In this document: in pieces, positions 8,223-36,896 of the stretch
How the letters are laid out: each line of letters opens with the position of its first letter
Numbering within the stretch: position 1 is the first letter of the stretch
Virus record (IMG/VR): IMGVR_UViG_2541047915_000010
Coordinates: 1 to 37,037 of that record
Strand: one strand, 5' to 3'
Length of the DNA stretch: 37,037 nt
Source of the DNA: a virus
Taxonomy: Duplodnaviria > Heunggongvirae > Uroviricota > Caudoviricetes
Notes under the pieces: generated by a model
Seen by the model: only the letters and a program-made list of their open reading frames with translations
Database searches by the model: none
What the model was told of the DNA's origin: nothing
Made by a program: the position numbers and the translations under genes

Positions 8223-8226
8223 ACCA

Positions 8227-8538: not shown

Positions 8539-8544
8539 CACAAC

Positions 8545-9044: not shown

Positions 9045-9046
9045 GT

Positions 9047-9502: not shown

Positions 9503-9528
9503 GCGAAGCAGCAGACAAGCGAAGCGCG

Positions 9529-10575
9529 TCAGGATGTGGGCTGGGTATCTAACAGTGCGTAAGGGTTAAAGCGGATCACCTCTTCGCCAAGCCAGTCATT
9601 GATGTGCTTCATGGCCTCCATGACGGGCATCAGCTCGTTAATTGCGTAAACCCGCGCGGCCTTCTCCACATCACCAAACGCACTTTTTTCGCCCGGCATC
9701 GCCCCCATCAGTTGCGGCGGAACGCGGTGCGCAGCCAGCACATCATCACGGGATGCCGCCTTAACATTCATGAACTCATCCTTTGCAGTGATCTGCTGGA
9801 ACGGCAAAATTTGCACACCTTCTTTGCCCCCGTTGGGCGCATGGATGAGCACGTTTTTAAACGCACCACCGCCACGCGCGCCCTGTAACGTTTCTTTCAG
9901 GGAGTCCATGCTTTCGCGGTTTACCTGCGCTGCACCGATGTAGATGATGCACCCGGCGTGGGATCCGTTGTCGTAGTACAGTTTTCTGAACATGTCCGCC
10001 GAATGAGAAAGGCTGGCCGAGAGTAATGCGCCAAGATATTCCGGCATGCCGTAGATTTCCTGGTTAATATCCGGATTCATCAGGTGGCACACTTTGCCAG
10101 GGCGAAACTGGAACGCGTCCTTGCCATCCTGCACATACCACCATGATTCAAGATCGCTTCCGCGTCGCATGTATTTCGCCAGTGCGTGCCGTAATTTAAG
10201 CGGTTCGCCGAGCATATTGCTTCGAAGCTCAAGGAATGCGTTACCGAACACAAACCAGTCCAGCGCCAGCGCCGAGAAATCCTGCCGGGAAAGCAGCGGG
10301 TGCGGGATGTAGCAACCGAGTAATACATTGCGCTTAAAGTAAAGCGCAGACTGATGCCAGGACGTTTGCCGGGCTGCTCTTGCCAGACCGTACCAGTCCA
10401 CCGGGGTTTCATACCACCGCCCGTTATCAGCACAGTACATATTGTCCAGCAGGTCATGCCCGGTCAGGCGATAAGGACCATCAAATGTGAATGCACTGAG
10501 CGATGATTCTTTCCTGAGCGCATCAGCGAGATCAATGCGTGAACTCATGCGCACCTTTTTATTTTTTCTGCTCAT
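9529..10575 (-). CDS. Q: Portal (capsid portal vertex) protein
   Basis: 348 aa, size and position as P2 gpQ; adjacent to and co-oriented with the large terminase. Confidence 0.85.
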   Translation of the reverse strand: MSRKNKKVRMSSRIDLADALRKESSLSAFTFDGPYRLTGHDLLDNMYCADNGRWYETPVDWYGLARAARQTSWHQSALYFKRNVLLGCYIPHPLLSRQDFSALALDWFVFGNAFLELRSNMLGEPLKLRHALAKYMRRGSDLESWWYVQDGKDAFQFRPGKVCHLMNPDINQEIYGMPEYLGALLSASLSHSADMFRKLYYDNGSHAGCIIYIGAAQVNRESMDSLKETLQGARGGGAFKNVLIHAPNGGKEGVQILPFQQITAKDEFMNVKAASRDDVLAAHRVPPQLMGAMPGEKSAFGDVEKAARVYAINELMPVMEAMKHINDWLGEEVIRFNPYALLDTQPTS

Positions 10576-12480: not shown

Positions 12481-13317
12481 ATGGCTAATGAAAAAAAGAC
12501 ATCCCGCAAAAAGTTTCGCGTGGCTGTCTCCGGATCAACTGTTGATGGCCGCGAAATCAGCCCGGTACATCTGCGTGAAGCCGCCGAGAACTTCAACCCG
12601 GATGTTTACGCTGCCCGCGTGAACGTTGAGCACTATCTCTCGCCATGCCCGTCAAGCGAATTTTCCGCAATGGGCGATGTCACCGCGCTGAGTACGGAAG
12701 ATATTACGGAAGGCCCGCTGGCCGGACGTACTGCGCTGTATGCAGAAATCGAACCGACCGAGCGCATGAAGCAGCTTGTCGCTGACGGCAAGAAAATCTA
12801 TTCCAGTATCGAACTGCACCCGCAGTTCTCCGTTAACGGGCGCGCCTATCTGGTCGGGCTGGCGATGACCGACACCCCGGCAAGCCTGGGCACTGAGCGC
12901 CTGAAATTCACGGCACAGCAGCGTCAGGCGGTGATGACGTTCAACAGTATCCAGGGTGAAGCACCGCTTATCTCCGAAGCCATCGAGTCTGAAATCATCG
13001 AAATGGCAGAACAACGCCAGGAAGAAGGCACCCAGTGGTTTAACCGCGTAATGGGGATTATTGGCCGTGGCCGCAAAGCGGATGACGCCAGTTTTTCCCG
13101 TATTCAGGAAGCGGTGGAAGGCGTCGCAACGTCACAGGCCGACATTATCGACCGTTTTAATGTGCTGGAAACCCGCCATCAGCAGGACCGCCAGAAAATT
13201 ACGTCACTGACCACAGAGCTGACAGCACTGAAGGAAAAACTGCGCACGCAGGACGGCGATCCGCAGAACCGGTTCACCGCAACGGGCGCAGCCTCCGACC
13301 AGCTGGCTGACTTCTGA
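12481..13317 (+). CDS. O: Capsid scaffolding protein
   Basis: ORF 12448-13317 trimmed to the ATG at 12481 (RBS cagagggg); MANEKKTSRKKFRVAVSGSTVDGREI and YLVGLAMTDTPASLGTE match the P2 gpO pattern. Confidence 0.85.
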   Translation: MANEKKTSRKKFRVAVSGSTVDGREISPVHLREAAENFNPDVYAARVNVEHYLSPCPSSEFSAMGDVTALSTEDITEGPLAGRTALYAEIEPTERMKQLVADGKKIYSSIELHPQFSVNGRAYLVGLAMTDTPASLGTERLKFTAQQRQAVMTFNSIQGEAPLISEAIESEIIEMAEQRQEEGTQWFNRVMGIIGRGRKADDASFSRIQEAVEGVATSQADIIDRFNVLETRHQQDRQKITSLTTELTALKEKLRTQDGDPQNRFTATGAASDQLADF

Positions 13318-19315: not shown

Positions 19316-20212
19316 ATGCCTGCCGTTGACCTTTCCCAGTTACCGGAACCCGCCATCATCGCGGAGCCTGACTTTGAGGCAATTCTGGCTGACACAAAGG
19401 CCATGATGATTGCGTCCTATCCTGCCGAACAGCGTGAAGCCGTCTCCGCCGCGCTGGAGCTGGAATCGGAACCCCTGAACGTTATCGCTCAAACCATGTC
19501 TTTTCGTGAAATGCTGTTACGCCAGCGGGTTAACGAGGGCGCACGCGCCTGCATGTTAAGCCACGGTTCAGGGACAAACCTGGACAACCTCGCGGGCAAT
19601 ATGAACACAAAGCGCCTGGTTATCACTCCGGCAACGGATACCACCGACGCGGTGATGGAGAGCGACACCTCGCTGAGATTGCGGGCGCAGCGGGCGTACG
19701 ACGGCCTGAGTGTTGCTGGCCCGTCAGGCGCATACGAGTATTTTGCACGCAGCGCCAGCGGTCTGGTGCGTGATGCGCGGGCCATCAGCCCGTCTCCGGC
19801 CTGTGTGACGGTTTCCATCCTGTCCACTGAAGGCGACGGCACAGCAACGGAGGCGTTGCTTAATACCATTCGCGCCGTTCTGAATGCAGAGGATACCCGC
19901 CCGGTGGCCGACCGCCTGACCGTACAGAGCGCCAGAATCGTGACATGGCGGCTGAATGCAAAACTGTACTTTTACCCCGGCCCGGAATCCGAACCTATTC
20001 TGGCCGCGGCTGAATCGTCGTTCAGGAAGTGGCTGGCTGAGCAGGGGCTTATCGGTCAGGACGTGGCGTTGTCCGCCATTGCTGCCGCACTGCATGTGCA
20101 CGGTGTGCAACGCGTGGAGATAATCGAACCCACACAGAATATGGCCATCAGCGACATACAGGCGGCGCGCTGTGAGTCATTCACCATCAGCGAAGGTGGG
20201 CGCAATGAGTAA
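19316..20212 (+). CDS. J: Baseplate protein J
   Basis: 298 aa (P2 gpJ about 302 aa); synteny W-J-I-H. Confidence 0.85.
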   Translation: MPAVDLSQLPEPAIIAEPDFEAILADTKAMMIASYPAEQREAVSAALELESEPLNVIAQTMSFREMLLRQRVNEGARACMLSHGSGTNLDNLAGNMNTKRLVITPATDTTDAVMESDTSLRLRAQRAYDGLSVAGPSGAYEYFARSASGLVRDARAISPSPACVTVSILSTEGDGTATEALLNTIRAVLNAEDTRPVADRLTVQSARIVTWRLNAKLYFYPGPESEPILAAAESSFRKWLAEQGLIGQDVALSAIAAALHVHGVQRVEIIEPTQNMAISDIQAARCESFTISEGGRNE

Positions 20213-20813
20213 TTCGTTGTTACCACCATCAGCCAGCAATTTCATGCGTTGTGCCGAAGCCGTCGGAACACGCATTACAGACATTCCGGTAGACCTCAAC
20301 ACGCTGTGGTCGCCGGACACCTGCCCGGTGCATCTGCTGCCTTATCTCGCCTGGGCGTTTTCCGTTGACCGCTGGGATCGCAACTGGCCGGAAGAGACAA
20401 AGCGACAGGTGATTCGTGATGCATGGCTGATACACCGACACAAAGGGACCATCAGCGCACTGCGAAGAGCCGTGGAGCCTCTCGGTTACCTGATTGAAGT
20501 AAAGGAGTGGTGGCAACTCAACGAGGAGCCGGGAACATTTCGCATTGTTGTCGGAGTACTTGATCAGGGCATCACCGATGAAATGTATCAGGAACTTGAG
20601 CGCCTTATTGCGGATGCAAAACCAGTAAGTCGCCATCTGACGGGGCTGGCGATCAGCCTGAGTGTGAACGGAAAGATTTTCGTTGGTACGGGATGCTATC
20701 ACGGCGATGCCCTGACGGTTTATCCCTACACCCCGGAGTCCATTATTGTCGAAGGGGACTATTTCCCTGCCCCGGCCATTCATTTAATTGATAATCTGAG
20801 AGTAAACGCATGA
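20205..20813 (+). CDS. I: Baseplate protein I
   Basis: ORF 20172-20813 trimmed to the ATG at 20205 (RBS gaaggtggg), overlapping the J stop. Confidence 0.8.
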   Translation: MSNSLLPPSASNFMRCAEAVGTRITDIPVDLNTLWSPDTCPVHLLPYLAWAFSVDRWDRNWPEETKRQVIRDAWLIHRHKGTISALRRAVEPLGYLIEVKEWWQLNEEPGTFRIVVGVLDQGITDEMYQELERLIADAKPVSRHLTGLAISLSVNGKIFVGTGCYHGDALTVYPYTPESIIVEGDYFPAPAIHLIDNLRVNA

Positions 20814-22375
20814 CAGTGAAATACTACGCCATTCTGACTAATCAGGGCGCGGCACGACTGGCTAACGCGACGATGCTCGGCAGTAAGCTGAATCTGACGC
20901 AAATGGCCGTTGGTGATGCAAATGGTGTGTTACCAACACCAGACCCTGCACAAACAAAACTGATTAACCAGAAACGCATTGCACCGCTGAATCTTCTGAG
21001 TGTTGACCCTAACAATCAGAGCCAGATTATTGCGGAGCAAATCATCCCTGAAAACGAGGGAGGATTCTGGATCCGTGAGATTGGTCTTTATGATGATGAA
21101 GGTGTACTCATTGCGGTGGCAAACTGCCCGGAAACGTACAAACCGCAGTTGCAGGAAGGCAGTGGACGCACCCAGACTATCCGCATGATTCTGGTTGTCA
21201 CGAACACCGAAGCCATCACGCTGAAAATCGACCCGTCTGTGGTTCTGGCAACCCGCAAATATGTGGATGATAAAATATCAGAGCACGAACAATCACGACG
21301 TCACCCGGACGCCTCGCTGACCGTAAAAGGTTTTACTCAGTTAAGCAGTGCAATTAACAGTGAATCAGAAACACTGGCCGCAACACCGAAAGCGGTTAAG
21401 GCTGCATATGACCTGGCTAACGGGAAATATACCGCCCAGAACGCCACCACTACACAAAAAGGGATTGTTCAGCTCAGTAGCGCCACGAACAGCACGTCTG
21501 AAACGCTGGCAGCGACACCAAAAGCTGTTAAGGCGGTAATGGATGAAACGAACAAGAAAGCACCATTAAACAGCCCGGCACTGACCGGAACGCCAACAAC
21601 ACCAACAGCGCCACAGGGGACTAATAGTACCCAGATCGCAAGCACGGCTTTCGTTATGGCCGCGATTGCCGCACTTGTAGACTCGTCACCTGATGCACTG
21701 AACACGCTGAACGAACTGGCTGCGGCGCTGGGCAATGACCCGAATTTTGCGACCACCATGACTAACGCGCTTGCGGGTAAGCAACCGAAGGATGCCACCC
21801 TGACGGCGCTGGCGGAGCTTGCTACATCAGCAGATAAACTCCCATATTTTACAGGGGCAGATCGTGCCGCGTTAACCGCGTTGACAAGTGTTGGACGTGC
21901 CATTCTTGGCAAAACCAGCACTCAGGGAGTTCTTGATTACCTTGGTTTGGGGGAAGGCTCTGCACTGCCCGTTGGTGTACCCGTTCCGTGGTCCTCAGCA
22001 ACACCACCAACGGGCTGGCTGAAATGTAACGGTGCAGCATTTTCTTCTGAAATGTATCCCAGACTGGCAAGGGCTTATCCCACCAATAAATTACCGGATT
22101 TACGCGGTGAATTTATCCGTGGCTGGGATGATGGGCGCGGGATTGATGCGGGACGTACCCTGCTTTCAGGGCAGGATGGTACAAGTTTTTCTCATTACGG
22201 AGGTAATTTCGACATTGGGTCTGGTCATTCAATCAATAACTATGACCAAATTGTTTCTAACCAACCAGGCTTTTCCCGTTTTTCATTTGCAGGGCCTTCA
22301 CGAGGCGATGGGGTTAATTATGTAACCATTCGTCCTCGTAATATTGCGTTTAATTACATCGTAAGGGCAGCATGA
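20810..22375 (+). CDS. H: Tail fibre protein H (constant N-terminal part fused in this orientation to variable cassette SvA)
   Basis: 521 aa; internal repeat SETLAATPKAVKA twice; C-terminal region begins at crossover site 1 and ends with the shared TIRPRNIAFNYIVRAA tail. Confidence 0.85.
   Translation: MTVKYYAILTNQGAARLANATMLGSKLNLTQMAVGDANGVLPTPDPAQTKLINQKRIAPLNLLSVDPNNQSQIIAEQIIPENEGGFWIREIGLYDDEGVLIAVANCPETYKPQLQEGSGRTQTIRMILVVTNTEAITLKIDPSVVLATRKYVDDKISEHEQSRRHPDASLTVKGFTQLSSAINSESETLAATPKAVKAAYDLANGKYTAQNATTTQKGIVQLSSATNSTSETLAATPKAVKAVMDETNKKAPLNSPALTGTPTTPTAPQGTNSTQIASTAFVMAAIAALVDSSPDALNTLNELAAALGNDPNFATTMTNALAGKQPKDATLTALAELATSADKLPYFTGADRAALTALTSVGRAILGKTSTQGVLDYLGLGEGSALPVGVPVPWSSATPPTGWLKCNGAAFSSEMYPRLARAYPTNKLPDLRGEFIRGWDDGRGIDAGRTLLSGQDGTSFSHYGGNFDIGSGHSINNYDQIVSNQPGFSRFSFAGPSRGDGVNYVTIRPRNIAFNYIVRAA
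21930..21955 (+). other. DNA-invertase crossover site 1 (hix/gix-like, 12-2-12) inside H
   Basis: ttcttgattacc TT ggtttgggggaa; resembles hixL as I recall it (TTCTTGAAAACC AA GGTTTTTGATAA); marks the constant/variable junction of H. Confidence 0.6.
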
Positions 22376-22394
22376 AAACGTTGGTTTGGGGGAA
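22369..22394 (+). other. DNA-invertase crossover site 2 (same orientation as site 1), overlapping the H stop codon
   Basis: agcatgaaaacg TT ggtttgggggaa; identical right half-site and core to site 1. Confidence 0.55.
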
Positions 22395-22862
22395 GGCTCT
22401 GCGTTGCCCGTTGGTGTGCCCGTTCCATGGCCCTCAGCCACGCCGCCAACGGGGTGGCTGAAATGTAACGGTGCAGCATTTTCTTCTGAAATGTATCCCA
22501 GACTGGCAAAGGCCTACCCCACCAATAAATTACCGGATTTACGCGGTGAATTTATCCGTGGCTGGGATGATGGGCGAGGAATTGATGCGGCACGCGCTTT
22601 ATTGAGCATTCAAAACGGGATGTTGGAAAAACACCGCCATATTGTTGTAGCTAACGATGGATATGACACAAAGGATGAATGGGAGTTGGCCACGATTTTC
22701 AAAAAAACATATACGCAAGGCAGCGGGCTTGATGCCACAAATACAGGAGGGAGTTTGATTCCATCACCAACGCTTCATTCACGAGGAAGTATTGGTAACA
22801 CAGGTGGTAGTGAAACCCGCCCCCGCAATATTGCATTTAACTATATCGTAAGGGCGGCTTAG
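22386..22862 (+). CDS. Promoterless alternative tail-fibre C-terminal cassette SvB
   Basis: Begins inside crossover site 2 in the same frame as H relative to the site (LGEGSALPVGVPVPW...); shares the conserved N- and C-terminal segments with SvA and has a different central region. Confidence 0.6.
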   Translation: MGEGSALPVGVPVPWPSATPPTGWLKCNGAAFSSEMYPRLAKAYPTNKLPDLRGEFIRGWDDGRGIDAARALLSIQNGMLEKHRHIVVANDGYDTKDEWELATIFKKTYTQGSGLDATNTGGSLIPSPTLHSRGSIGNTGGSETRPRNIAFNYIVRAA

Positions 22863-22868
22863 TTATAT

Positions 22869-23480
22869 TCAACTGGCTGCTGCCAGTGGTATTTCCGGCA
22901 AGTTGATATCTGGTGCCATGTTTATATCCATTGCGTTCAGCGCGTCTATATAATCCAGCACGGCATTAAGCCGGGTGGTTTCTGCCTGCGTCAACTTCCG
23001 CCCGGCCTGCAACTTCAACTGAATCAGACTTATGGAAGCCATTGCCGCATCAGCCAGTGACTGACGCTTGGTTTCTGCCGCTTCTACTGCGGCACGATGT
23101 TGTGCCTCAGTATCTGTCACCCATTTTTCACCATCCCATTTATCGTATGGTGTTAACGGGGCGATAGTGGTTGTATTTTTCGGGTAGTCACCCAGCGCCG
23201 TGATTTCTTCGGTGTTTCCCGTGTCAGTGCTATAGACGGTTTCACCACGATGGTCTGGCGCATACTCCCATGAACTTAAATTCTCCGAACGGCGGATAGC
23301 ATAGCCCGCTTTATGTGCGCCCGGGGCATCTAAACAGGAATTTGCCGGAATACCGACACCCACAGCAAGATATTCAGTTGATTCGGAAATATATTCCCGT
23401 GTCTCACCATCATAGTTATAAACGACGATGTTTCCTGCCTGTACGGCAATAAGGTCATCATTTAATATCGCGTTATTCAT
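22869..23480 (-). CDS. Tail fibre assembly chaperone (Tfa; P2 G / Mu U family), copy 1
   Basis: 203 aa; C-terminal ...LTQAETTRLNAVLDYIDALNAMDI...PEIPL is the Tfa signature; co-oriented with and downstream of cassette SvC. Confidence 0.75.
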   Translation of the reverse strand: MNNAILNDDLIAVQAGNIVVYNYDGETREYISESTEYLAVGVGIPANSCLDAPGAHKAGYAIRRSENLSSWEYAPDHRGETVYSTDTGNTEEITALGDYPKNTTTIAPLTPYDKWDGEKWVTDTEAQHRAAVEAAETKRQSLADAAMASISLIQLKLQAGRKLTQAETTRLNAVLDYIDALNAMDINMAPDINLPEIPLAAAS

Positions 23481-23875
23481 TATGCGGTTCTCACAATATA
23501 ATTGAAGGCAATATTGCGTGGGCGGGTTTCATTCCCCTCTGAGGATTCAGTTCTGTATTGACTGGTAAATCTACCGTTAATTGCACCTTGCCGGACGGCG
23601 TTATCTGTCGACAACAGACTATCCCCTCCTTTGTCATTTGGCACCAGCACCGTGTTATCCCACGCATCCCATGACCGAATATTATGATAATGACTTCCTG
23701 TTAACCACCCCTGCATGCTTAAGATGCCCCTTCCGGCATCCACCCCGCGCCCATCATCCCAGCCACGGATAAATTCACCGCGTAAATCCGGTAATTTATT
23801 GGTGGGATAAGCCCTTGCCAGTCTGGGATACATTTCAGAAGAAAATGCTGCACCGTTACATTTCAGCCAGCCCGT
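23480..23875 (-). CDS. Alternative tail-fibre C-terminal cassette SvC (inner, left copy)
   Basis: Minus-strand ORF 23480-23965; from TGWLKCNGAAFSSEMYP onward it is fibre-like, while the part above 23875 is read-through of the complementary arm. Confidence 0.5.
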   Translation of the reverse strand, partial: TGWLKCNGAAFSSEMYPRLARAYPTNKLPDLRGEFIRGWDDGRGVDAGRGILSMQGWLTGSHYHNIRSWDAWDNTVLVPNDKGGDSLLSTDNAVRQGAINGRFTSQYRTESSEGNETRPRNIAFNYIVRTA

Positions 23876-23879
23876 TGGT

Positions 23880-24308
23880 GTGCCCGTTCCATGGCCCTCA
23901 GCCACGCCGCCAACGGGGTGGCTGAAATGTAACGGTGCAGCATTTTCTTCTGAAATGTACCCCAATCTGGCAAAGGCCTACCCCACCAATAAATTACCGG
24001 ATTTACGCGGTGAATTTATCCGTGGCTGGGATGATGGGCGCGGGGTGGATGCCGGAAGGGGCATCTTAAGCATGCAGGGGTGGTTAACAGGAAGTCATTA
24101 TCATAATATTCGGTCATGGGATGCGTGGGATAACACGGTGCTGGTGCCAAATGACAAAGGAGGGGATAGTCTGTTGTCGACAGATAACGCCGTCCGGCAA
24201 GGTGCAATTAACGGTAGATTTACCAGTCAATACAGAACTGAATCCTCAGAGGGGAATGAAACCCGCCCACGCAATATTGCCTTCAATTATATTGTGAGAA
24301 CCGCATAA
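23880..24308 (+). CDS. Alternative tail-fibre C-terminal cassette SvC' (inner, right copy)
   Basis: 142-aa ORF identical to SvC over most of its length; followed by tfa copy 2. Confidence 0.5.
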   Translation: MPVPWPSATPPTGWLKCNGAAFSSEMYPNLAKAYPTNKLPDLRGEFIRGWDDGRGVDAGRGILSMQGWLTGSHYHNIRSWDAWDNTVLVPNDKGGDSLLSTDNAVRQGAINGRFTSQYRTESSEGNETRPRNIAFNYIVRTA

Positions 24309-24919
24309 TGAATAACGCGATATTAAATGATGACCTTATTGCCGTACAGGCAGGAAACATCGTCGTTTATAACTATGATGGTGAGACACGGGAATATATT
24401 TCCGAATCAACTGAATATCTTGCTGTGGGTGTCGGTATTCCGGCAAATTCCTGTTTAGATGCCCCGGGCGCACATAAAGCGGGCTATGCTATCCGCCGTT
24501 CGGAGAATTTAAGTTCATGGGAGTATGCGCCAGACCATCGTGGTGAAACCGTCTATAGCACTGACACGGGAAACACCGAAGAAATCACGGCGCTGGGTGA
24601 CTACCCGAAAAATACAACCACTATCGCCCCGTTAACACCATACGATAAATGGGATGGTGAAAAATGGGTGACAGATACTGAGGCACAACATCGTGCCGCA
24701 GTAGAAGCGGCAGAAACCAAGCGTCAGTCACTGGCTGATGCGGCAATGGCTTCCATAAGTCTGATTCAGTTGAAGTTGCAGGCCGGGCGGAAGTTGACGC
24801 AGGCAGAAACCACCCGGCTTAATGCCGTGCTGGATTATATAGACGCGCTGAACGCAATGGATATAAACATGGCACCAGATATCAACTTGCCGGAAATACC
24901 ACTGGCAGCAGCCAGTTGA
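24308..24919 (+). CDS. Tail fibre assembly chaperone (Tfa), copy 2
   Basis: 203-aa protein 100 percent identical to the minus-strand copy at 22869-23480 (track translations are identical). Confidence 0.75.
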   Translation: MNNAILNDDLIAVQAGNIVVYNYDGETREYISESTEYLAVGVGIPANSCLDAPGAHKAGYAIRRSENLSSWEYAPDHRGETVYSTDTGNTEEITALGDYPKNTTTIAPLTPYDKWDGEKWVTDTEAQHRAAVEAAETKRQSLADAAMASISLIQLKLQAGRKLTQAETTRLNAVLDYIDALNAMDINMAPDINLPEIPLAAAS

Positions 24920-24925
24920 ATATAA

Positions 24926-25405
24926 CTAAGCCGCCCTTACGATATAGTTAAATGCAATATTGCGGGGGCGGGTTTCACTACCACCTGTGTTACCAATACT
25001 TCCTCGTGAATGAAGCGTTGGTGATGGAATCAAACTCCCTCCTGTATTTGTGGCATCAAGCCCGCTGCCTTGCGTATATGTTTTTTTGAAAATCGTGGCC
25101 AACTCCCATTCATCCTTTGTGTCATATCCATCGTTAGCTACAACAATATGGCGGTGTTTTTCCAACATCCCGTTTTGAATGCTCAATAAAGCGCGTGCCG
25201 CATCAATTCCTCGCCCATCATCCCAGCCACGGATAAATTCACCGCGTAAATCCGGTAATTTATTGGTGGGGTAGGCCTTTGCCAGTCTGGGATACATTTC
25301 AGAAGAAAATGCTGCACCGTTACATTTCAGCCACCCCGTTGGCGGCGTGGCTGAGGGCCATGGAACGGGCACACCAACGGGCAGCGCAGAGCCTTCCCCC
25401 AAACC
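24926..25405 (-). CDS. Promoterless alternative tail-fibre C-terminal cassette SvB' (inverted copy of SvB)
   Basis: Minus-strand ORF 24926-25459; identical in protein sequence to SvB from GLGEGSALPVG to the C-terminus; abuts inverted crossover site 5 in frame. Confidence 0.6.
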   Translation of the reverse strand, partial: GLGEGSALPVGVPVPWPSATPPTGWLKCNGAAFSSEMYPRLAKAYPTNKLPDLRGEFIRGWDDGRGIDAARALLSIQNGMLEKHRHIVVANDGYDTKDEWELATIFKKTYTQGSGLDATNTGGSLIPSPTLHSRGSIGNTGGSETRPRNIAFNYIVRAA

Positions 25406-25419
25406 AACGTTTTCGTCTT
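25394..25419 (-). other. DNA-invertase crossover site 5 (inverted relative to sites 1 and 2)
   Basis: Plus strand ttcccccaaacc AA cgttttcgtctt, i.e. reverse complement aagacgaaaacg TT ggtttgggggaa. Confidence 0.6.
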
Positions 25420-25473
25420 TATCCCTACCTATACCAACTATGTATTTTTCACGAAACAAAGAGGATGTTTTTT

Positions 25474-26073
25474 ATGCAAATTGGCTATATTCGTGTGTCA
25501 ACAAATGACCAGAACACGGATTTACAACGCAATGCACTGAACTGCGCAGGATGTGAACTGATTTTTGAAGATAAAATCAGCGGAACGAAATCAGCCAGAC
25601 CGGGATTGAAAAAACTGCTCAGAACGCTATCAGAAGGAGATACGCTGGTTGTCTGGAAGCTGGACAGACTGGGCAGAAGTATGAAACACCTGATCACGCT
25701 TATTGAGGAATTGCGGGAAAAAGGTGTTAATTTCCGTAGCCTGACGGACAGCATTGACACATCAACACCCATGGGGCGTTTCTTTTTTCACGTCATGGGG
25801 GCTTTAGCCGAAATGGAACGTGAATTAATTGTAGAGCGTACACTGGCCGGGCTGGCAGCAGCACGCGCACAAGGACGCATTGGCGGACGTCGCCCGAAGT
25901 TGACAAAAGAACAACACGAGCAAATAGCGAGGCTGATTAAAAACGGTCATGACAGGAAACAACTGGCGATCATTTACGACATCGGCATATCGACGATTTA
26001 TCGTTATCACCCTGTAGGCGATATACAGGCTGAAGAAACAACCAGGCAGACTCAGGAAAATGAAAACCGCTAA
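25474..26073 (+). CDS. Serine DNA invertase (Hin/Gin/Cin/Pin family)
   Basis: ORF 25279-26073 trimmed to the ATG at 25474 (gagga RBS 9 nt upstream); MQIGYIRVSTNDQNTDLQRNAL... with catalytic Ser in RVST and a C-terminal HTH (GISTIYRY); about 199 aa. Confidence 0.9.
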   Translation: MQIGYIRVSTNDQNTDLQRNALNCAGCELIFEDKISGTKSARPGLKKLLRTLSEGDTLVVWKLDRLGRSMKHLITLIEELREKGVNFRSLTDSIDTSTPMGRFFFHVMGALAEMERELIVERTLAGLAAARAQGRIGGRRPKLTKEQHEQIARLIKNGHDRKQLAIIYDIGISTIYRYHPVGDIQAEETTRQTQENENR

Positions 26074-26093
26074 TCTGACCATTAGCGGTTTTG
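26062..26093. terminator. Bidirectional terminator between convergent invertase and U
   Basis: Perfect 12-bp stem aaaaccgctaat / attagcggtttt with loop ctgacc; A-run on one side and T-run on the other. Confidence 0.6.
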
Positions 26094-26099
26094 CGTTAA

Positions 26100-26594
26100 T
26101 CAAAACAGCCCTTTAACGGAGCTGGCCGCGCTGTTAAGGGATGATGTGACCTTATCTTTGAAGCCGGACAGCATATCACTGAACGATGAGGATTGCAGGC
26201 GCTCCCGCAAATCCTCATCACAGCGTTCAAGGGTCAGTGAAAATTCTATCTTTTTCGCCTTACCGTAGCGATCAAACTCGGAGCGGGTCGTATTCGTTTC
26301 AGTCAGTACATACATGCCGTAAATCTGCCCGACACCATCAATCAGAGGCCAGGGGCGTCCTGTATATGCCTGCGTGGTCAGCAACGAAAGCGACACTTCG
26401 CCACCTGTAATTTCAGGATAAAGCACACCAGAAAGAACGATGCGATCATCACCTGCACCGATATACTGCCAGCTTGCTGAACGGTTAACGCGTTCATTTT
26501 TCACATGCCGCCAGCTTTTGTTTTGCTGTAACTGCTGATGCGGCAGCGTGCGCAGCTCAAAAACAAACATGCCGTAGATCATCATCATGGCCAT
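26100..26594 (-). CDS. U: Tail protein U
   Basis: N-terminal MMIYGMFVFELRTLPHQQLQQNKSWRH parallels P2 gpU (MMMLGLFVFRLRTLPYQELQRQRSWRH); the true start is probably one of the Met codons at 26585-26588 given the gaggag RBS. Confidence 0.8.
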   Translation of the reverse strand: MAMMMIYGMFVFELRTLPHQQLQQNKSWRHVKNERVNRSASWQYIGAGDDRIVLSGVLYPEITGGEVSLSLLTTQAYTGRPWPLIDGVGQIYGMYVLTETNTTRSEFDRYGKAKKIEFSLTLERCDEDLRERLQSSSFSDMLSGFKDKVTSSLNSAASSVKGLF

Positions 26595-26600
26595 GACTCC

Positions 26601-29417
26601 TCAATCTTTATCGTAAAAACTGCCACGCCCGGCACGGGCGCGCCGTTCCATTTCTGCCCTGACCATTTCACCGACCAGTTTCGCCAGTTCGCGGGGATTC
26701 TGTGTAACAACGTTATGCAGATGAACATGAATTTCACCGCCAAATCCGGAGGCAACAGGCTCCCGGTTACGGGAAGTTGCAGGAACTGATGCCACTGGCG
26801 ATCGTATGGCCTCTGCCACCGGGCGGGAGCTGGCCGCAACAACAGGGACCAGCGCCGGAGGCAGCGGAGCCGGAACCACAGGTGTGATATTAATTGCGGG
26901 GGCAGGCTTACTGACCTGCGCAATCTTCCGCTCCTGCCACTCCCCACGAACAGCAAGTGCGCGGGGCAGGTTCTTAAAGACAATATCGCCGGGGCCAATA
27001 CGTTTTTTCGTCTCATCAACCAGCTTACCTGTGTTATCAGCAATTTTGCTGAGTCTGCGTAGCGTACCGGTATTGCTGTCTGTGAGCGGTTTGTTGTCTT
27101 TGGGTTTATCACCTCCGGTGCCATTGCCATTTTCCACAGGCTTCGGCGGATTGATTTTCGCCAGGTCCCCCTGAAGCAAGGCAACCTTGTCCTGAAGAAT
27201 GGCCGCACGCTGTGCGTCTTCGATTTTCTTGCGCGCCCTTTCCGCTTCATCCGGAAGCACACCGAGCTTTTCAAGTATCCACGCCAGCGTATCCAGCAAC
27301 ATTTTTGCAGGTGTCAGAACAAGTTGTAACGCACCGCCAAGAACATTACCGAATGTCTCGCCAGCACTGGTACATTTATCCAGCGTTTCCTTGCTGGACT
27401 CCATCGGTGACAGCAGCGATTTAAACCAGTTAAACACCTGGCTGATCCCACTCCCGATTGCGTCAAAAACAGGACCAAACCGTTCAAAGGTTTCGCGCAA
27501 CGGGGTCAGCCTTTCCATAATCCCGCTGAACACCCCGGCAAAAAATGCCCTGATGGGATCCCAGTATTTCCAGATAAGGACGGCAGCTCCGGCAAGCGCA
27601 GCCACGATAAGACCAACCGGACTGAACAGCGCCCCGATAGCGCCTCCCAGTAAAGAAACGGAACCCGTCACCATTCCCCATAGTGCTGGCAGGACCCTGA
27701 CAGCATTCATTGATCCGGTCAGGAGAGAAAAACCAAGACGCAGTTTTGCCAGCGGACCAGCAAGCACACCAATAGCCAGCGACAACGAGCCAACCGTTGC
27801 AGTCATTGCCAGCAACGCACCGCCTGCTATCAGTAGCTGGCGCGTCAGTGCCGGATGGGCCTGCGCCAGCGCCGTCACCCTTGATACCACCCGCGTGAGC
27901 CACTGCGTGACAGAACGCAGCGGACCGTCAATCAGATCTGCAATGCGGATGCGCAACCCTTCCCATGCACTGCCGAGTGATTTCAGATCGCCGTCAAGGT
28001 TGTTGGCCATGACCTTTGCTGTGCGTTCAGCCTCACCGCGCGCGCCTTCAAGTTCTTTTCTCAGTTTAGGTAAGGAACCGTCACCCGCTGCATCAACGAG
28101 CGCCATAAACGATGTGAAAGCCTCTTCTCCGGCAATGTCCTTAAAGAACGATACCCGGTCAACTTCCCCGTATTTGCGGGTGGCTTTATAAAGGTCGGCC
28201 AGCACATCCTCCATCGGGCGCATTTTGCCGTTCGCGTCAGAGACTGCCACACCAAGCTCTTTCAGCGCCTCTGCTGCTGCCTTTGGCGGTGATGCCAGAC
28301 GAGCCAGGCTGGCACGCATTGCCGTCCCGGCATCACTCCCTCTGATACCCATATTCGCCAGCACACCCGCCATCGCTGCGGCCTGCTCCAGCGATATTCC
28401 CAGCTTACCCGCCACCGGACCTGCATATTTCATGGTTTCGCCCAGTGCGCGAAGGTCAGTGTTGGTACGGGTAAATGCTGCGGTGAGCGTGTCGCCAACC
28501 CGGTCCATCTGGTCAGCAGAAAGGCCGAACTGCGTCAGGATATTTGAGCCAATATCCGCCGTCTCGCCGAGATCCATGCCGCCAGCCGTTGCCATGCTCA
28601 GCACGCCCGGAAGCGCAGCCTGAATGGCCTGCGGAGTGAAGCCAGCCATTGCAAGAAATGCCTGCCCACTGGCGGCATCGCCTGCGGTGAACTGCGTTTC
28701 AGAGCCAAGTTTTAACGCCTGCTCACGCAGCGCCTTAAACTGCGGGCTGTTCTGGTCGATTCGCGTCAGTGCCTGAACGCGGGACATCTCTTTGCCGAAC
28801 CCGATCGCAGGCTGCAAAAAACGCCCGGCAGCATAGCCGCCAGCCGCTGCCGCACCAATTGCCAGCGCACCACCTGTTTTCAGTTTTCCCGCGGTTTCCC
28901 GCACGCGCGAATACCGCTCACGCGCCCGCGTTACACGCGCAAGCGCCTGCCGTTCGCGTTCAAGCTGGTTGTTGTACTGTTCGGTGCGTCTGATGGCCTG
29001 CTGGATGGTGTTATCGCTGCCTGTCAGGGAAATGCCGTGGCGTTTCAGCTCTCCGCCAAGCTCCCGCATTTTCTGAATTTCCCGTGTGCGCAATTCATTC
29101 AGGCGTTCAAGCCGGGTGCTTAACTGCTGCATCAGCTTTTGTTGTTTTTCGCTGAGCACTGTACCCGTGCGTTGTAACTGATTAAGGGCGTTAAGCTGGC
29201 GTCGCGCTTTCACGATACCCGCATCCGCTTTACTGACAGCGTCGCGGGCGCGCTCAAATGAACGCGCCTGACGCTCGAGATTTTTGATCGCCCCCTGCGT
29301 TCGCTGGATGGAGTCACCAAACTGCCCCATCAGGCGGCGGGCGTTTTCGGCAGGTCGGGTCAGCCTGTCAACGGCGCTGAAAGCGACCCGGATATCAAGA
29401 GTCTTCATTGTCTGCAT
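26601..29417 (-). CDS. T: Tail tape measure protein T
   Basis: ORF 26601-29444, about 940 aa, coiled-coil N-terminal half and Gly/Ala-rich hydrophobic segments; start set at an internal Met (29417 or 29408) downstream of the E' stop; start uncertain. Confidence 0.8.
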   Translation of the reverse strand: MQTMKTLDIRVAFSAVDRLTRPAENARRLMGQFGDSIQRTQGAIKNLERQARSFERARDAVSKADAGIVKARRQLNALNQLQRTGTVLSEKQQKLMQQLSTRLERLNELRTREIQKMRELGGELKRHGISLTGSDNTIQQAIRRTEQYNNQLERERQALARVTRARERYSRVRETAGKLKTGGALAIGAAAAGGYAAGRFLQPAIGFGKEMSRVQALTRIDQNSPQFKALREQALKLGSETQFTAGDAASGQAFLAMAGFTPQAIQAALPGVLSMATAGGMDLGETADIGSNILTQFGLSADQMDRVGDTLTAAFTRTNTDLRALGETMKYAGPVAGKLGISLEQAAAMAGVLANMGIRGSDAGTAMRASLARLASPPKAAAEALKELGVAVSDANGKMRPMEDVLADLYKATRKYGEVDRVSFFKDIAGEEAFTSFMALVDAAGDGSLPKLRKELEGARGEAERTAKVMANNLDGDLKSLGSAWEGLRIRIADLIDGPLRSVTQWLTRVVSRVTALAQAHPALTRQLLIAGGALLAMTATVGSLSLAIGVLAGPLAKLRLGFSLLTGSMNAVRVLPALWGMVTGSVSLLGGAIGALFSPVGLIVAALAGAAVLIWKYWDPIRAFFAGVFSGIMERLTPLRETFERFGPVFDAIGSGISQVFNWFKSLLSPMESSKETLDKCTSAGETFGNVLGGALQLVLTPAKMLLDTLAWILEKLGVLPDEAERARKKIEDAQRAAILQDKVALLQGDLAKINPPKPVENGNGTGGDKPKDNKPLTDSNTGTLRRLSKIADNTGKLVDETKKRIGPGDIVFKNLPRALAVRGEWQERKIAQVSKPAPAINITPVVPAPLPPALVPVVAASSRPVAEAIRSPVASVPATSRNREPVASGFGGEIHVHLHNVVTQNPRELAKLVGEMVRAEMERRARAGRGSFYDKD

Positions 29418-29924
29418 TCCCGCTGCGAAGTGCCGCCCGCTCACGCCAGCTAACCACTTCGCCGGGCGTCATCATGAAGATTTCGGCGGGCGACCAGTTA
29501 AAAATAACGGCAATATCTGCCACAAAGTCTTCTATGTGCTCAAAGCACACAACCGTGATCAGGCTTCCGTCACCTGTTCGTTCTTCCCGCCAGAGTCCGC
29601 ACCGCTCAAAAAATTTACGGCAACCACACATAACTGAATAAAGTCACGGGATGCCATTTTTTTGATCGTCACTTCATCCAGTCGCGGTGATGTCACGCGT
29701 GACAGCAGCGTAAACATGGATTCCGCTTTCAGATTCAGCACATCAGACAGCGACAAATCTCGCAGAGATCCAGCCTGCTCAATAGCCCCGGTGATCTCCA
29801 CATACGTGATTTTTTCGCCGCCTCGCTCAATGGGTTGGGTAAGTTTTACGCCACGCTCACTGGTTTCTTTCACAGTGTCAGCAACTACCGTGTTTTCGGT
29901 ATCGATGTTTTTCGTCTCTTTCAT
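29395..29924 (-). CDS. E+E' frameshift fusion product (programmed -1 frameshift)
   Basis: The -1 frame ORF 29395-29631 overlaps the 3' end of E; slippery heptamer TTTTTTG on the coding strand at 29607-29613, as in P2 E/E' and other tail chaperone pairs. Confidence 0.6.
29559..29924 (-). CDS. E: Tail assembly chaperone E
   Basis: 121-aa ORF between FII and T, as P2 gpE. Confidence 0.75.
   Translation of the reverse strand: MKETKNIDTENTVVADTVKETSERGVKLTQPIERGGEKITYVEITGAIEQAGSLRDLSLSDVLNLKAESMFTLLSRVTSPRLDEVTIKKMASRDFIQLCVVAVNFLSGADSGGKNEQVTEA
29607..29613 (-). promoter_or_regulatory. Slippery heptamer T-TTT-TTG for the E/E' -1 ribosomal frameshift
   Basis: Plus strand caaaaaa = minus strand ttttttg; in E frame ..aat ttt ttg.., E' frame ..aaa ttt ttt gag.. 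Confidence 0.6.
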
Positions 29925-29978
29925 CAGGAAACTCCTTTCAGTCAGAGGCGACGCACTGCGCCGCCTGCATATTACTTA

Positions 29979-30491
29979 TCAGCCAAGCCCAAGCGCGGAA
30001 CGGATGCGATCGGGCACAATGTCCTTGCCGTCCTTCCGGTAAATGAAGTTCAGCAGGTCAATCTCCCACAACGGACGATCGTTAACACTCAGCTTGTAGT
30101 AGGTGTTTTTAATGGCGTAAGTGTGTGATGTGGCTTCGCCCTGTTTGGCTTCCCCCATATCAATTTCCGTCACACGTCCGCGCATTTCGACTTCATACAG
30201 GTCGCTTTCTGCATCGGTGTAGTATTCACCCGCAAAACGCAGCAGCGTGCCGTCAATCGTGCCGCCATACTTAAGGAACAGCTCACGAACTGCGCCCCCC
30301 ATGACAAAGCTCGCATCAAGCGCGGAGTCGTCCAGACCGAGATCAATACTTACCGCCCCCATCATGCCACCACCCCGGTAGCTGTCGGTTTTGCGCGTCA
30401 GCTTAGGCAAAGTGACGGACGTCACCTTACCCACTTCGTTTTCACCATCCACAAACAGCGTAAAAAAGCGAAGATGTTTTGGCACAGCCAT
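29979..30491 (-). CDS. FII: Tail tube protein FII
   Basis: 170 aa (P2 FII about 172 aa); immediately downstream of the sheath gene. Confidence 0.85.
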   Translation of the reverse strand: MAVPKHLRFFTLFVDGENEVGKVTSVTLPKLTRKTDSYRGGGMMGAVSIDLGLDDSALDASFVMGGAVRELFLKYGGTIDGTLLRFAGEYYTDAESDLYEVEMRGRVTEIDMGEAKQGEATSHTYAIKNTYYKLSVNDRPLWEIDLLNFIYRKDGKDIVPDRIRSALGLG

Positions 30492-31675
30492 CAGGCACCT
30501 CCCAGCACCGCAAATGCGGGTTCAAAGTATTCATCAGTAAACGTCTGGTAAAGCTCCATGTCTTCCAGTGGCGGAACGGGCGTATATTTGTAGCGAATAC
30601 GCACACGCCCCTGACGTAAATCCGTGGTGCTGTTATCCACCACGTCATACCAGCACTCCGCGCCAATCAGTTTCCCGGCAGTCACCAGTGAATCCAGTTT
30701 TGCCCTGATGGCACTGATAACATCCTTCACGTTCGCAGGCGTCAGTGGACTGTCGATGGTTTCAAACTGCGCTTCCGCAATTGAATCAGCCAGCACCTGT
30801 GCGGTTCGGGTATACACCTCAAAGATGTAGGCGTTCGTTTCCGGTGTGCGGTTGCCCCAGAAGCGGAACCCGTTGCGACGAATAATGGTCGTGATTTCTT
30901 TGTTGTTGAGGCTGTTGGCATCGCTGTCTTCGGCCTGCAACGACCAGAACACATGCCTCGACATCCCCAGCACATTTTTAACCGGAACGTTGGACAGTGA
31001 TTTGTGCCATCCCTGCTCATGGTCAATGTACGCACGAAGGCCGCACGCATAGGCAGGCGCGGGGAACGTTTCGTTTTTGCCACTTTTCGGGTTGTAGGCG
31101 ATGAAGTCCGGCCATAAGAGCATCACCTCACGTTCGTTGAATTTCTGGCGGTAGGTAATCGCCTCAGCCATCGTGTTACAGCCGTGACATGAGGCATACA
31201 CAAACGCGCGCAGTTTACCTGCAATCACGCACAGGGATTTTGTTACAGCCTCCGTGTCCAACTCCGGCGCGGCCAGAATACGCGGACGGTATCCGATGCT
31301 TTCATCCTGCTCTGCAACAAGCAGCGCATACATCCCCGTATAGCTGCCGTCATCCTCAGAACCACCGATAACCAGTTGATCCTGCGTCTTTCCGCCTTCT
31401 TCTTTGTGTTCAGCCACGCGAACGACGATCACCTTTGTGCTCACCTGGTCTGCGATGGCCTTAAGCGCACGATAAAGCGTCCCCGTTGTCCCGCATTTTC
31501 CCAGCACGTCATTGACGCGGGTCAGCAGTGTGGGCTTGTTCAGCGGGAACAGCTTCGCGTCCGCATCATCCGCCGTTGCCACGATACCGATAACGCTGGA
31601 ATCAACATCGTTAATCGCTGTTACCAGGTCGGTATTTTCCGTAACACGGGCACCATGAAAACGAGTTTCACTCAT
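30491..31675 (-). CDS. FI: Tail sheath protein FI
   Basis: 394 aa; LRAFVYASCHGCNTMAEAITYRQKF, EQGWHKSLSNV, RRNGFRFWGNRT, YKYTPVPPLE align with P2 FI as I recall it. Confidence 0.9.
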   Translation of the reverse strand: MSETRFHGARVTENTDLVTAINDVDSSVIGIVATADDADAKLFPLNKPTLLTRVNDVLGKCGTTGTLYRALKAIADQVSTKVIVVRVAEHKEEGGKTQDQLVIGGSEDDGSYTGMYALLVAEQDESIGYRPRILAAPELDTEAVTKSLCVIAGKLRAFVYASCHGCNTMAEAITYRQKFNEREVMLLWPDFIAYNPKSGKNETFPAPAYACGLRAYIDHEQGWHKSLSNVPVKNVLGMSRHVFWSLQAEDSDANSLNNKEITTIIRRNGFRFWGNRTPETNAYIFEVYTRTAQVLADSIAEAQFETIDSPLTPANVKDVISAIRAKLDSLVTAGKLIGAECWYDVVDNSTTDLRQGRVRIRYKYTPVPPLEDMELYQTFTDEYFEPAFAVLGGA

Positions 31676-31832
31676 AGCTTCAGCCCCTTGTATCCGTTAA
31701 ATGATTCGGCAACAATCATCACCCACCACGCGCGTAATCTCACCCCTGCGCCATTCTCCCGCCACGGCGACAACAAAAAGCAGTAACCCCCTCCGCACGC
31801 ACATGCGACCATGCCATACAGGGAGGGAACAG
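31676..31832. promoter_or_regulatory. Divergent intergenic region between FI (minus) and D (plus); expected late promoters
   Basis: Positional only; 157 bp between divergent start codons. Confidence 0.3.
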
Positions 31833-32942
31833 ATGACCGACACCACCATGCAATTGCTCAGTCAGGGCACAGACCCCGTGAAAATGCCGGATTTTGATAT
31901 TCTCGCGGAGGGTAAAACGCTGTCAGGCATGGCAGAGCGCCTGATGAGCCTGTCACTGACCGACAACCGGGGATTTGAGGCGGACCAGCTCACCATCACG
32001 CTGGATGATGCGGATGGTCAGTTGCAGCTACCGCCACGGGGCGCGCGCCTGACGGTTCTCATTGGCTGGAAAGGAGAACCGCTGACAGAAAAAGGCACTT
32101 ACATTGTTGATGAAATTGCTCATGAAGGACCGCCCGACAGACTGACCATTTCAGCCAGAAGCGCAGATTTTCGGGATGAATTTAACGTCAAGCGCGAAGT
32201 ATCTTGGCATGATGTGACCGTTGAACGCGTGGTGTCTGCAATTGCTCACCGATACGGCCTGAAACCGCAAATCAGCGAAATGCTGATGGATATTGAAATC
32301 GACCACGCTGACCAGACCGAAGAAAGCGACATGTCCTTCCTTACGCGCATGGCGGAAATGCTGGGCGCAATCACCACGGTAAAAAGCGGCAATCTGTTAT
32401 TCATCATGCCAGGTGGTGGCGTGAACGCACAGGGGCAGCCGTTGCCCTCGTTCGCCATTACACGCAGCAGCGGCGATCGCCATCAGTTCCGCATTGCTGA
32501 CCGCGAGGCGTATACGGGGGTACGCGCCTACTGGCTTGATCTTAATTACGGGAAAAAGAAAAAAGTCAGCGTGAAACGCCGCAAACCGCCAAAACCCAAA
32601 AAGGAGAAAAGCAGCAGTCGGGAAGGCGACTATATGGAAGGTGCGGAAGGCAACGTGTTTGTGTTACGCAAGACTTATCAGAACGAGCAGGCAGCAAGAC
32701 GCGCAGCGGCGGCAAAGTGGCAGCAGCTACAACGCGGAGCCGCATCATTCTCCATCACGCTGGCGCGTGGTCGTGCAGAACTCTATCCCGAAATGCATGG
32801 CACAGTGACAGGCTTTAAAAGCGAGATTGATTATCAGGACTGGATTATTGCAAAAGCCGAGCACACCATTGATAACAGCGGCTTTACCACGCAGCTTGAA
32901 CTTGAAGCAAAAATCCCGGAATGGATAGCAGAAACAGAATAA
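31833..32942 (+). CDS. D: Tail protein D (late gene D, gpD family)
   Basis: ORF 31701-32942 trimmed to the ATG at 31833 (RBS gggaggg); MPDFDILAEGK...LSLTDNRGFEADQL...ISARSADFR, basic KKKK..KPKKEK stretch and FTTQLELE end, as in P2 gpD. Confidence 0.9.
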   Translation: MTDTTMQLLSQGTDPVKMPDFDILAEGKTLSGMAERLMSLSLTDNRGFEADQLTITLDDADGQLQLPPRGARLTVLIGWKGEPLTEKGTYIVDEIAHEGPPDRLTISARSADFRDEFNVKREVSWHDVTVERVVSAIAHRYGLKPQISEMLMDIEIDHADQTEESDMSFLTRMAEMLGAITTVKSGNLLFIMPGGGVNAQGQPLPSFAITRSSGDRHQFRIADREAYTGVRAYWLDLNYGKKKKVSVKRRKPPKPKKEKSSSREGDYMEGAEGNVFVLRKTYQNEQAARRAAAAKWQQLQRGAASFSITLARGRAELYPEMHGTVTGFKSEIDYQDWIIAKAEHTIDNSGFTTQLELEAKIPEWIAETE

Positions 32943-33069
32943 ATCTCTTAAAAATATTATTTTTGAGATGTGCTTCTACACTGACAGTAAGAACAAAAGA
33001 TAATGTATCAGCCCACTAGATGTCAGAGGTTGGGGCATCAACCAGATGCTAACAATAATACGGATGTTT

Positions 33070-33106
33070 TTCCCACATGACAGAGGAAGTCAAGTATAAT
33101 CTTCAC
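33070..33106 (+). promoter_or_regulatory. Putative sigma-70 promoter for the 1039-aa ORF
   Basis: Perfect -10 hexamer TATAAT at 33095-33100; -35 is weak; about 90 bp upstream of the ATG at 33191. Confidence 0.3.
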
Positions 33107-33190
33107 AGTCCATCCCGTCCAAGGGAATATGACTCAATAGTAAAAGTTCCAGTTTAGTTAGTAGACCCACACTTTATAGAAGAGTAATTC

Positions 33191-36310: not shown

Positions 36311-36318
36311 TATCTTTG

Positions 36319-36349
36319 ACGGCGCTCCTTAGAGTGCCGTTCGTTTATT
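36319..36349 (+). terminator. Putative rho-independent terminator after the 1039-aa ORF
   Basis: Imperfect stem acggcgctc / gagtgccgt with loop ctta, followed by tcgtttatt. Confidence 0.45.
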
Positions 36350-36445
36350 AACTAATGCTAAAAATCATTATATAGAGAAAGTCATGTTTAAATCTTAGAG
36401 AATACAACCTAGAATAGTGCAAGCACTACAATAAGAGAGGTCGCT

Positions 36446-36706: not shown

Positions 36707-36896
36707 CGAGCAGAATTGCCGGAGTAACAAAAAAGCGATAGATTACGCGCGGGTGCCTTTCGGCTGATGGTCGGAGGGAATACCTGAAGGCCAGATGTGG
36801 AAAGGCCCCGGAAAACATTTTTGTTTAACCGAGGCCCTAACCGTCTACCCTAAGCAAGTGATAGGTTAGCGCCTCCCCGAAAAAGGAGCAAGCGCT

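Follow-up and report, generated by a model that had tools for sequence, protein, structure and literature searches.

The 37,037-nucleotide stretch of DNA analyzed here (positions 1 to 37,037 of the IMG/VR virus record IMGVR_UViG_2541047915_000010; hereafter, the window) comprises a whole P2-family prophage of Escherichia coli together with a short host flank and runs, left to right, from the integrase to ogr, as annotated by proxy from close relatives. The locus under study is the tail-fiber region of this prophage, where the genes gpV, gpW, gpJ, gpI and H (20810-22375, + strand) are followed by a block of fiber-tip cassettes and a recombinase gene (25474-26073, + strand), beyond which gpU and the tape-measure gene lie on the minus strand; the P2 gpE, tube and sheath genes are also found near this module. 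The gpV-W-J-I-H order, the tail-collar fiber domain at the N-terminus of H and a chaperone of the Caudo_TAP family jointly identify a P2-family (Peduovirus-like) tail-fiber module. The crossover sites, the reading frames, an intact Gin-like invertase, an enhancer-like sequence and the natural permutations among relatives, with breakpoints at the sites, support the conclusion that this locus is a multi-site, multi-cassette tail-fiber inversion region run by a serine invertase of the Hin/Gin type (Table 1). Within it, the assembled sequence contains a 3-kb palindrome, the only unusual feature of the locus and, most likely, an assembly artifact.

The open reading frame (ORF) of H matches the N-terminal Phage_tail_fib domain of Pfam, fiber repeats and the Collar domain, and consists of a constant part, collinear with relatives, to which the cassette SvA is fused at present. 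The cassettes share a common plan, namely, a conserved N-terminal block of about 77 amino acids (aa) that corresponds to the Pfam Collar domain, a variable middle block and a conserved end of 14 aa, TRPRNIAFNYIVRAA. The first-pass annotation of this DNA had recognized the conserved termini, whereas its estimate of about 75 aa for the central block was somewhat high, the measured length being 50-70 aa. It had also proposed that the constant part of H joins the cassettes in frame, and the sequence bears this out: the H frame across the first crossover site reads ...DYLGLGEGSALPVG, SvB and SvB' go on as GLGEGSALPVG, and a synthetic join of the constant part to SvB forms a single open frame. That each site is placed for such joining holds for SvA and SvB but not for SvC, as a crossover site was searched for at both SvC copies in the window and none was found. 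Because SvC is devoid of a site, the locus as assembled permits joining to H for SvA and SvB alone.

Table 1 Features of the tail-fiber inversion locus, with positions in the window
Feature	Positions	Strand	Remarks
H constant part (aa 1-378)	20810-21943	+	up to the crossover core; collinear with relatives
Crossover site s1	21930-21955	+	TTCTTGATTACC TT GGTTTGGGGGAA; within H
Cassette SvA	21944-22375	+	fused to H at present; stop codon 22373-22375
Crossover site s2	22369-22394	+	AGCATGAAAACG TT GGTTTGGGGGAA; overlaps the H stop codon
Near-perfect palindrome, 3041 bp	22374-25414		arms 22374-23878 and 23910-25414; small s2-s3 segment once per orientation
Cassette SvB, left copy	22383-22862	+	Collar domain (Pfam)
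tfa, tail-fiber assembly chaperone gene, left copy	22869-23480	-	downstream of SvC'; Caudo_TAP matched on the identical right copy
Cassette SvC', left copy	23480-23878	-	ends inside the conserved N-terminal block; without crossover site
Palindrome center	23871-23917		CCCGTTGG (23871-23878) and CCAACGGG (23910-23917) around a 31-nt loop (23879-23909)
Cassette SvC, right copy	23871-24308	+	complete from PVGVPVPW onward; without upstream crossover site
tfa chaperone gene, right copy	24308-24919	+	Caudo_TAP (Pfam)
Cassette SvB', right copy	24926-25405	-	ORF translation
Crossover site s3	25394-25419	-	AAGACGAAAACG TT GGTTTGGGGGAA on the minus strand; beside the invertase gene
Serine DNA invertase, Gin/Cin/Pin/Hin type, 199 aa	25474-26073	+	outside the invertible segment; ORF intact
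Presumed Fis-dependent recombinational enhancer	25492-25563	+	nt 19-90 of the invertase gene; by homology

The crossover sites conform to those of the Hin, Gin, Cin and Pin systems, that is, they are 26-bp sequences of the 12-2-12 type with the core TT, two of them in the forward and one in the reverse orientation. An earlier mismatch-tolerant search with a 12-mer was uninformative (4 matches versus 3.25 expected), and the 20-mer AACGTTGGTTTGGGGGAAGG was used instead. Allowing up to three mismatches, this 20-mer has exactly three matches in the 37 kb, at 21938-21957 (+), 22377-22396 (+) and 25392-25411 (-), against a chance expectation of 0.01, which confirms the two direct sites and the inverted one reported in the first-pass annotation. 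Between the core sequence AAACGTTGGTTTGGGGGAA and AAACCTTGGTTTGGGAGAA, the repeat of the e14 locus and of the Mu prophage of E. coli E2348/69 (PMC4272514, Table S1), 2 of 19 positions are different. A fourth, weak site-like match at 30150-30175 on the minus strand (GTGTGACGGAAA TT GATATGGGGGAA), with two mismatches in the half-site, lies among the tail genes and is kept in E2348/69 (12887-12912 of locus L005, in the tail-tube gene there); as no cassette-like sequence follows it, this match is most likely due to chance.

The recombinase adjacent to s3 has the architecture of the small serine recombinases, with an N-terminal catalytic serine domain and a C-terminal helix-turn-helix domain, and matches the Pfam domains Resolvase (E = 1.5e-51) and HTH_7. 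Its alignment with Mu Gin (PDB 4m6f) extends over 185 residues (E = 3e-91), with about 78% identity by our own count from the alignment. The catalytic serine is kept: Ser9, within the motif RVSTNDQ, lies opposite the S9A substitution of PDB 3uj3. The family assignment made in the first-pass annotation thus stands, and the identical protein is encoded on at least 1000 contigs. The 5' part of the invertase gene, where a Fis-dependent enhancer was anticipated, indeed holds a homologous sequence. The P1 record AF234173.1 annotates the enhancer of Cin-mediated inversion at nt 19-90 of cin, and the corresponding segment of the window aligns with it gap-free, with 57 of 72 positions identical (53 of 72 with Mu gin); within the blocks TCAACAAATGA and GCAGGATGTGA, no position varies among the three sequences. 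By this homology, the segment is a putative enhancer that presumably depends on Fis.

The region between s2 and s3 departs from the simple layout of such switches in a way that was overlooked at first. Here, the sequence forms an inverted repeat with two arms of 1505 nt, 99% complementary and separated by a 31-nt spacer, such that SvB, the chaperone gene and SvC are each present twice, in the order H-SvA, s2, SvB(+) tfa(-) SvC'(-) >< SvC(+) tfa(+) SvB'(-), s3, invertase. The center falls on an 8-bp inverted repeat that occurs naturally in the SvC coding sequence; the hairpin has a predicted folding energy of -24 kcal/mol (z-score -6). The arms differ at 8 positions, one at 22404/25384 and seven within 65 nt of the center, and the inner 75 nt of SvC' represent an SvA-like allele. 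In this configuration, inversion between s2 and s3 would be almost silent, and the junction s3-GGCTCTGCGTTG-SvC is missing from the window. The ORF 23480-23965 on the minus strand spans the palindrome center and is represented in RefSeq by WP_024235758.1 and WP_050576103.1, deposited as 'tail fiber protein'. It starts with MGYISEENAAPLHFSHPVGGVAEGHGTGTP, the antisense reading of a cassette N-terminus, and is probably not a real protein.

We compared the window with close E. coli loci (labeled L001-L026), of which 19 related loci were examined for cassette order. Similar sequence is present in about 3000 of 5426 complete E. coli genomes, none of which has 80% of the region in one place. The three-site arrangement H-SvA, SvB, tfa(-) SvC(-), invertase is found in E2348/69 (L003 and L005), L012 and L018, and the alternative H-SvC tfa, SvB(-), invertase in D72 (L004). 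Forms with four sites and an extra cassette D (L001, L006, L017, L019, L022 and L025) display each of the four possible pairings of module orientation with D position, and among the five-site forms with a cassette E, the B-tfa-C module points one way in L020, L021 and L024 and the opposite way in L023. Every cassette in the 19 related loci is provided with a site of its own in the same orientation, and each locus has a single B-tfa-C module; the window, with its three sites, three cassette types and site-less SvC, is the only exception. Set side by side, the relatives make up a clean catalog of the permutations that occur naturally in a system of 3 to 5 sites with identical components. With three sites and three cassette types, the locus in the window resembles the multiple-inversion class, as the first-pass annotation had it, although SvC is site-less in this assembly. 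Across the loci L001-L026, there is a single Caudo_TAP chaperone gene per locus, always directly downstream of SvC, and none is encoded on the same strand as SvA, SvB, SvD or SvE. In the common H-SvA state, the chaperone gene is consequently in the wrong orientation; these short tips may fold without the chaperone, or it may be expressed separately.

In some of these permutations, the exchange points can be mapped closely. The loci L006 and L001 show no mismatches over 2.5 kb of the left flank and 2 kb of the right flank, and differ by inversion of the 2065-bp s2-s3 segment, with the outer half-sites alone unmoved. The mappable exchange points fall within 31 nt (right junction of the window versus L012) and 71 nt (L006 versus L001), and both intervals hold the 26-bp site. 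Direct fusion of the H constant part to SvB is found in three complete genomes (CP026723.1, CP122588.1 and CP172145.1), with a single 830-nt alignment in each, and also in a draft contig (L010; BRRO01001154.1 of GCA_026009695.1). Together with the H-SvC fusion of D72, all three cassettes, SvA, SvB and SvC, are thus seen fused to the same constant part among related genomes. Some SvC copies, in L010 and at 23807-23878 of the window, carry PRLARAY instead of PNLAKAY, an SvA-like stretch in the conserved N-terminal block. Such SvA-like stretches show that exchange or gene conversion takes place inside the 215-bp repeats, in addition to the site-specific crossover.

The inversion switch is already known at this very locus from the EPEC strain E2348/69, because the site coordinates reported there match and the prophages are 98.7-98.9% identical. 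In single-colony cultures of E2348/69, paired-end mapping revealed that a P2-like prophage undergoes two inversions that overlap (Goldberg et al. 2014, Genome Med, PMC4272514). The large inversion (NC_011601.1 1891695-1893703) was 90 +/- 3% forward and the small one (1892127-1893703) was 49 +/- 37% forward, with large variance from colony to colony (PMC4272514). The region, termed a shufflon in that work, contains three 215-bp repeats with 92% identity, and the four co-existing variants, with three alternative C-termini, were validated by polymerase chain reaction (PMC4272514). In L005, position 1891695 of NC_011601.1 corresponds to s1, 1892127 to s2 and 1893703, the common right end, to s3; the published sequence of the left repeat is that of the s1 region of the window. 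E2348/69 and the window share the prophage lineage, the three sites, the SvA, SvB and tfa-SvC cassettes and the position of the invertase. However, E2348/69 has SvB-tfa-SvC once, with SvC next to the invertase and equipped with its own site, whereas in the window the module appears twice, as a palindrome, and SvC is site-less. Given that the E2348/69 locus flips, that isogenic prophages differ by clean inversions and that the window contains both adjacencies of SvB, there is a strong, even if indirect, case that the segment inverts in the prophage of the window as well.

Under the mechanism that these observations suggest, the invertase would pair s3 either with s1, inside H, or with s2, at the H stop codon, and exchange strands at the TT core, with Fis bound at the enhancer. 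Each inversion would fuse another cassette, itself lacking a promoter, in frame to the constant part of H, namely, SvA, SvB, or SvC together with the chaperone, and in each state, one tip would be expressed from the late H transcript. Because the inversions would swap cassettes behind H, a lysogenic culture is expected to contain mixed phages or phage-tail particles that differ in their receptor-binding tips. These tips presumably differ in receptor specificity and would affect the host range.

Two other accounts of the rearrangements themselves should be considered. One attributes them to RecA-dependent homologous recombination between the inverted repeats of about 215 bp and 92% identity, rather than to the invertase. 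The length of these repeats, the conserved cassette N-termini, is sufficient for homologous recombination, and hybrid N-terminal alleles, such as the SvA-like beginnings of SvC in L010 and in the left palindrome arm, require exchange inside the repeat, not at the core. Nevertheless, this origin of the inversions is extremely unlikely, considering that the mapped exchange intervals of 31 and 71 nt are short and each contains the 26-bp site, that sites and cassettes are always co-oriented, that an intact Gin-like invertase with the putative enhancer adjoins every locus, and that inversion within an E2348/69 colony amounts to tens of percent, much more than the rates of homologous recombination would give. 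The other account posits a frozen relic, with the invertase or the sites dead and the arrangement fixed in this strain. The prophage may be defective, which would fit such a state, but the invertase is full length with Ser9 kept and is identical to the proteins on the numerous other contigs, the sites do not differ from those at the active locus of E2348/69, and the two SvB adjacencies in the assembly (s2-SvB and SvB-s3) point to both orientations in the culture. We therefore regard a dead locus as very improbable.

The best explanation of the locus as a whole, in which we are quite confident, is a three-site inversion switch with a chimeric assembly product, the palindrome, inside it. The palindrome itself probably resulted from chimeric short-read assembly of a culture in which the segment was present in mixed orientation, and several lines of comparison lead us to infer its artifactual origin. 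The window is collinear with the orientation of L006 and L012 from 20000 to 23878, and with the opposite one, that of L001, from 23870 to 27000. Reverse-complemented, the normal locus L012 matches the right arm with the spacer (23870-25414) at 100% identity over 1545 nt. On its outer sides, the palindrome ends at s2 and s3, the bounds of the 'small inversion' that is close to 50:50 in E2348/69 cultures. Furthermore, the left SvB copy begins with an SvC-type base at 22404 and goes on as the SvB type 92 nt later, which fits mis-phasing of two read populations. On this interpretation, assembly would have proceeded from the left flank in one orientation and from the right flank in the opposite one, with the two extensions joined at the natural 8-bp hairpin in SvC. 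The true locus would then most likely have the ordinary three-site form H-SvA, SvB, tfa(-) SvC(-), invertase, and be about 1.5 kb shorter. There is no need to postulate that a fourth cassette, SvD, as present in L006 and L001, was lost, because L012 and E2348/69 provide a three-site form of which the inverted segment matches the right arm at 100%.

The distribution of the central junction is also telling. A 301-nt query spanning it produced no true spanning match in the 5426 complete E. coli genomes; the single place with 99% coverage consists of three pieces over 1.1 kb of one plasmid. Neither exact 30-mer scans of IMG/VR and the GTDB representative genomes nor a scan with a degenerate 32-mer, run on GTDB genomes and JGI metagenomes, found the junction, and the junction-specific 161-aa ORF (WP_024235758.1) occurs, among 15 billion proteins, on one contig only. 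This contig, KE702029.1 of GCA_000460795.1, is the source draft scaffold and the only one among the public records searched in which the junction is present.

There are, however, observations that weigh against an assembly origin and favor, to some extent, a palindrome that exists in the cell. The central join is the weak point: with an overlap of only 8-10 nt between the strands, it would not arise from a k-mer graph alone, so that simple graph collapse is ruled out as the source. Its formation would require either gap closing or a library chimera that folded back at the hairpin. The differences between the arms cluster beside the center in seven of the eight cases, and the SvC allele of the left arm (PRLARAY) occurs in nature, in L010; hence, each arm could represent a genuine copy, with slight divergence between the two. 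A real palindrome would be a fold-back recombinant, or a product of template switching between two orientation states, via the 8-bp CCCGTTGG/CCAACGGG in SvC. In such a prophage, SvB-tfa-SvC would be mirror-duplicated and the SvC site lost, so that the switch toggles between SvA and SvB only, with SvC locked out. The position of the center, exactly on a natural hairpin of -24 kcal/mol, is what snap-back template switching predicts, the non-identity of the arms and the natural occurrence of the left-arm allele favor this scenario a little, and the scaffold has no gap or N at the center. Homologous recombination within the conserved N-terminal blocks is ruled out as a route to the palindrome, given that the plus strands share just the 8-nt inverted repeat. 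Against a palindrome in the cell stand its confinement to one draft scaffold in all the collections searched, the coincidence of its outer ends with crossover sites, which implies that both orientation states were involved in any case, and the retention of one site per cassette in all 19 related loci. In addition, SbcCD of E. coli acts on long palindromes (PMC4787754), and one with 1.5-kb arms and a 31-nt spacer should draw its attack. We consider this scenario unlikely and retain chimeric assembly as the preferred explanation.

Comparison with known inversion systems clarifies the class of the locus. Like the G segment of Mu with Gin and the C segment of P1 with Cin, the window has a serine invertase gene outside the invertible segment, 26-bp sites where the constant part of the fiber gene meets the variable part, and alternative C-termini accompanied by a Caudo_TAP chaperone. 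The enhancer of those systems lies in the 5' end of the invertase gene, as does the putative one in the window. However, the Mu and P1 systems have two sites, two states and a chaperone for each tip, whereas the window has two forward sites and a reverse one, at least three tips and a single chaperone tied to SvC. In the Min system of plasmid p15B, and in P1-like phage-plasmids, several crossover sites in both orientations shuffle several fiber-tip cassettes; the p15B system, with six sites and more cassettes, resides in a P1-type replicon. This multiple-inversion system was reportedly described by Sandmeier, Iida, Arber and colleagues, about 1990-92. The locus in the window resembles p15B Min in being multi-site and multi-cassette, but is smaller and located in a P2-family prophage. 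The likeness to the R64 shufflon (Rci, sfx, pilV) is limited to the shuffling of the C-terminal cassettes of one gene by several inverted sites: R64 employs a tyrosine recombinase, 19-bp sfx sites and a pilus adhesin, whereas the sole recombinase at the locus described here is of the serine (Resolvase) type. The label 'shufflon' used in the first-pass annotation is, therefore, inapplicable in its strict R64 sense, and the system is of the Gin/Cin/Pin/Min type. The P1-like Escherichia phage vB_EcoM-673R5 (L014, ON470615.2 61139-70846) carries cassettes that are 88.6% identical to those of the window, so that these fiber-tip cassettes are common to P1-type and P2-type elements. In the record of that phage, the invertase gene is split into 'Hin1' and 'Hin2' and many tail genes are fragmented, probably by sequencing frameshifts.

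The region is biologically ordinary, a well-understood bet-hedging device that varies the receptor-binding tip in P2-, Mu- and P1-type phages. Its assembled form is of practical value as a probable worked example of how a fast-flipping segment can lead to a palindromic mis-assembly in a deposited draft genome. If the palindrome is a mis-assembly, it is itself indirect evidence that the segment flips in the sequenced culture. The mis-assembly would also have generated the spurious RefSeq proteins WP_024235758.1 and WP_050576103.1, and taken at face value, the palindrome would mislead annotation as well as searches for 'novel' palindromes or duplicated fiber modules. If, conversely, the palindrome is true, an invertible locus in mixed orientation can seed large inverted duplications at an 8-bp hairpin within a cassette. 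A cassette would then have been stripped of its crossover site and locked out, and the structure would be tolerated in wild E. coli despite SbcCD.

Some observations concern other parts of the prophage. A 1039-aa ORF (33191-36310, + strand) has a G+C content of 33%, compared to 51% for the window, and about four N-terminal hydrophobic segments; searches against Pfam-A and PADLOC yielded no match at E <= 0.01. This ORF lies between the P2 gpD gene (31701-32942) and ogr (36446-36706), a cargo slot of P2-type prophages, and its homolog in CP136025.1 bears the PGAP name 'MFS transporter'. It is possible that this ORF is an uncharacterized cargo or defense gene. The part of the window from 25420 to 37037 is covered to at least 80% in only 5 of the 5426 complete E. 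coli genomes. Another variable cargo slot appears to be located at about 7000-10100 of the window, where E2348/69 (NC_011601.1 1866578-1890553) has about 3 kb of extra sequence, with genes for an S8 family peptidase and an AAA family ATPase, and where ParM-like, partition and hypothetical genes are annotated in relatives.

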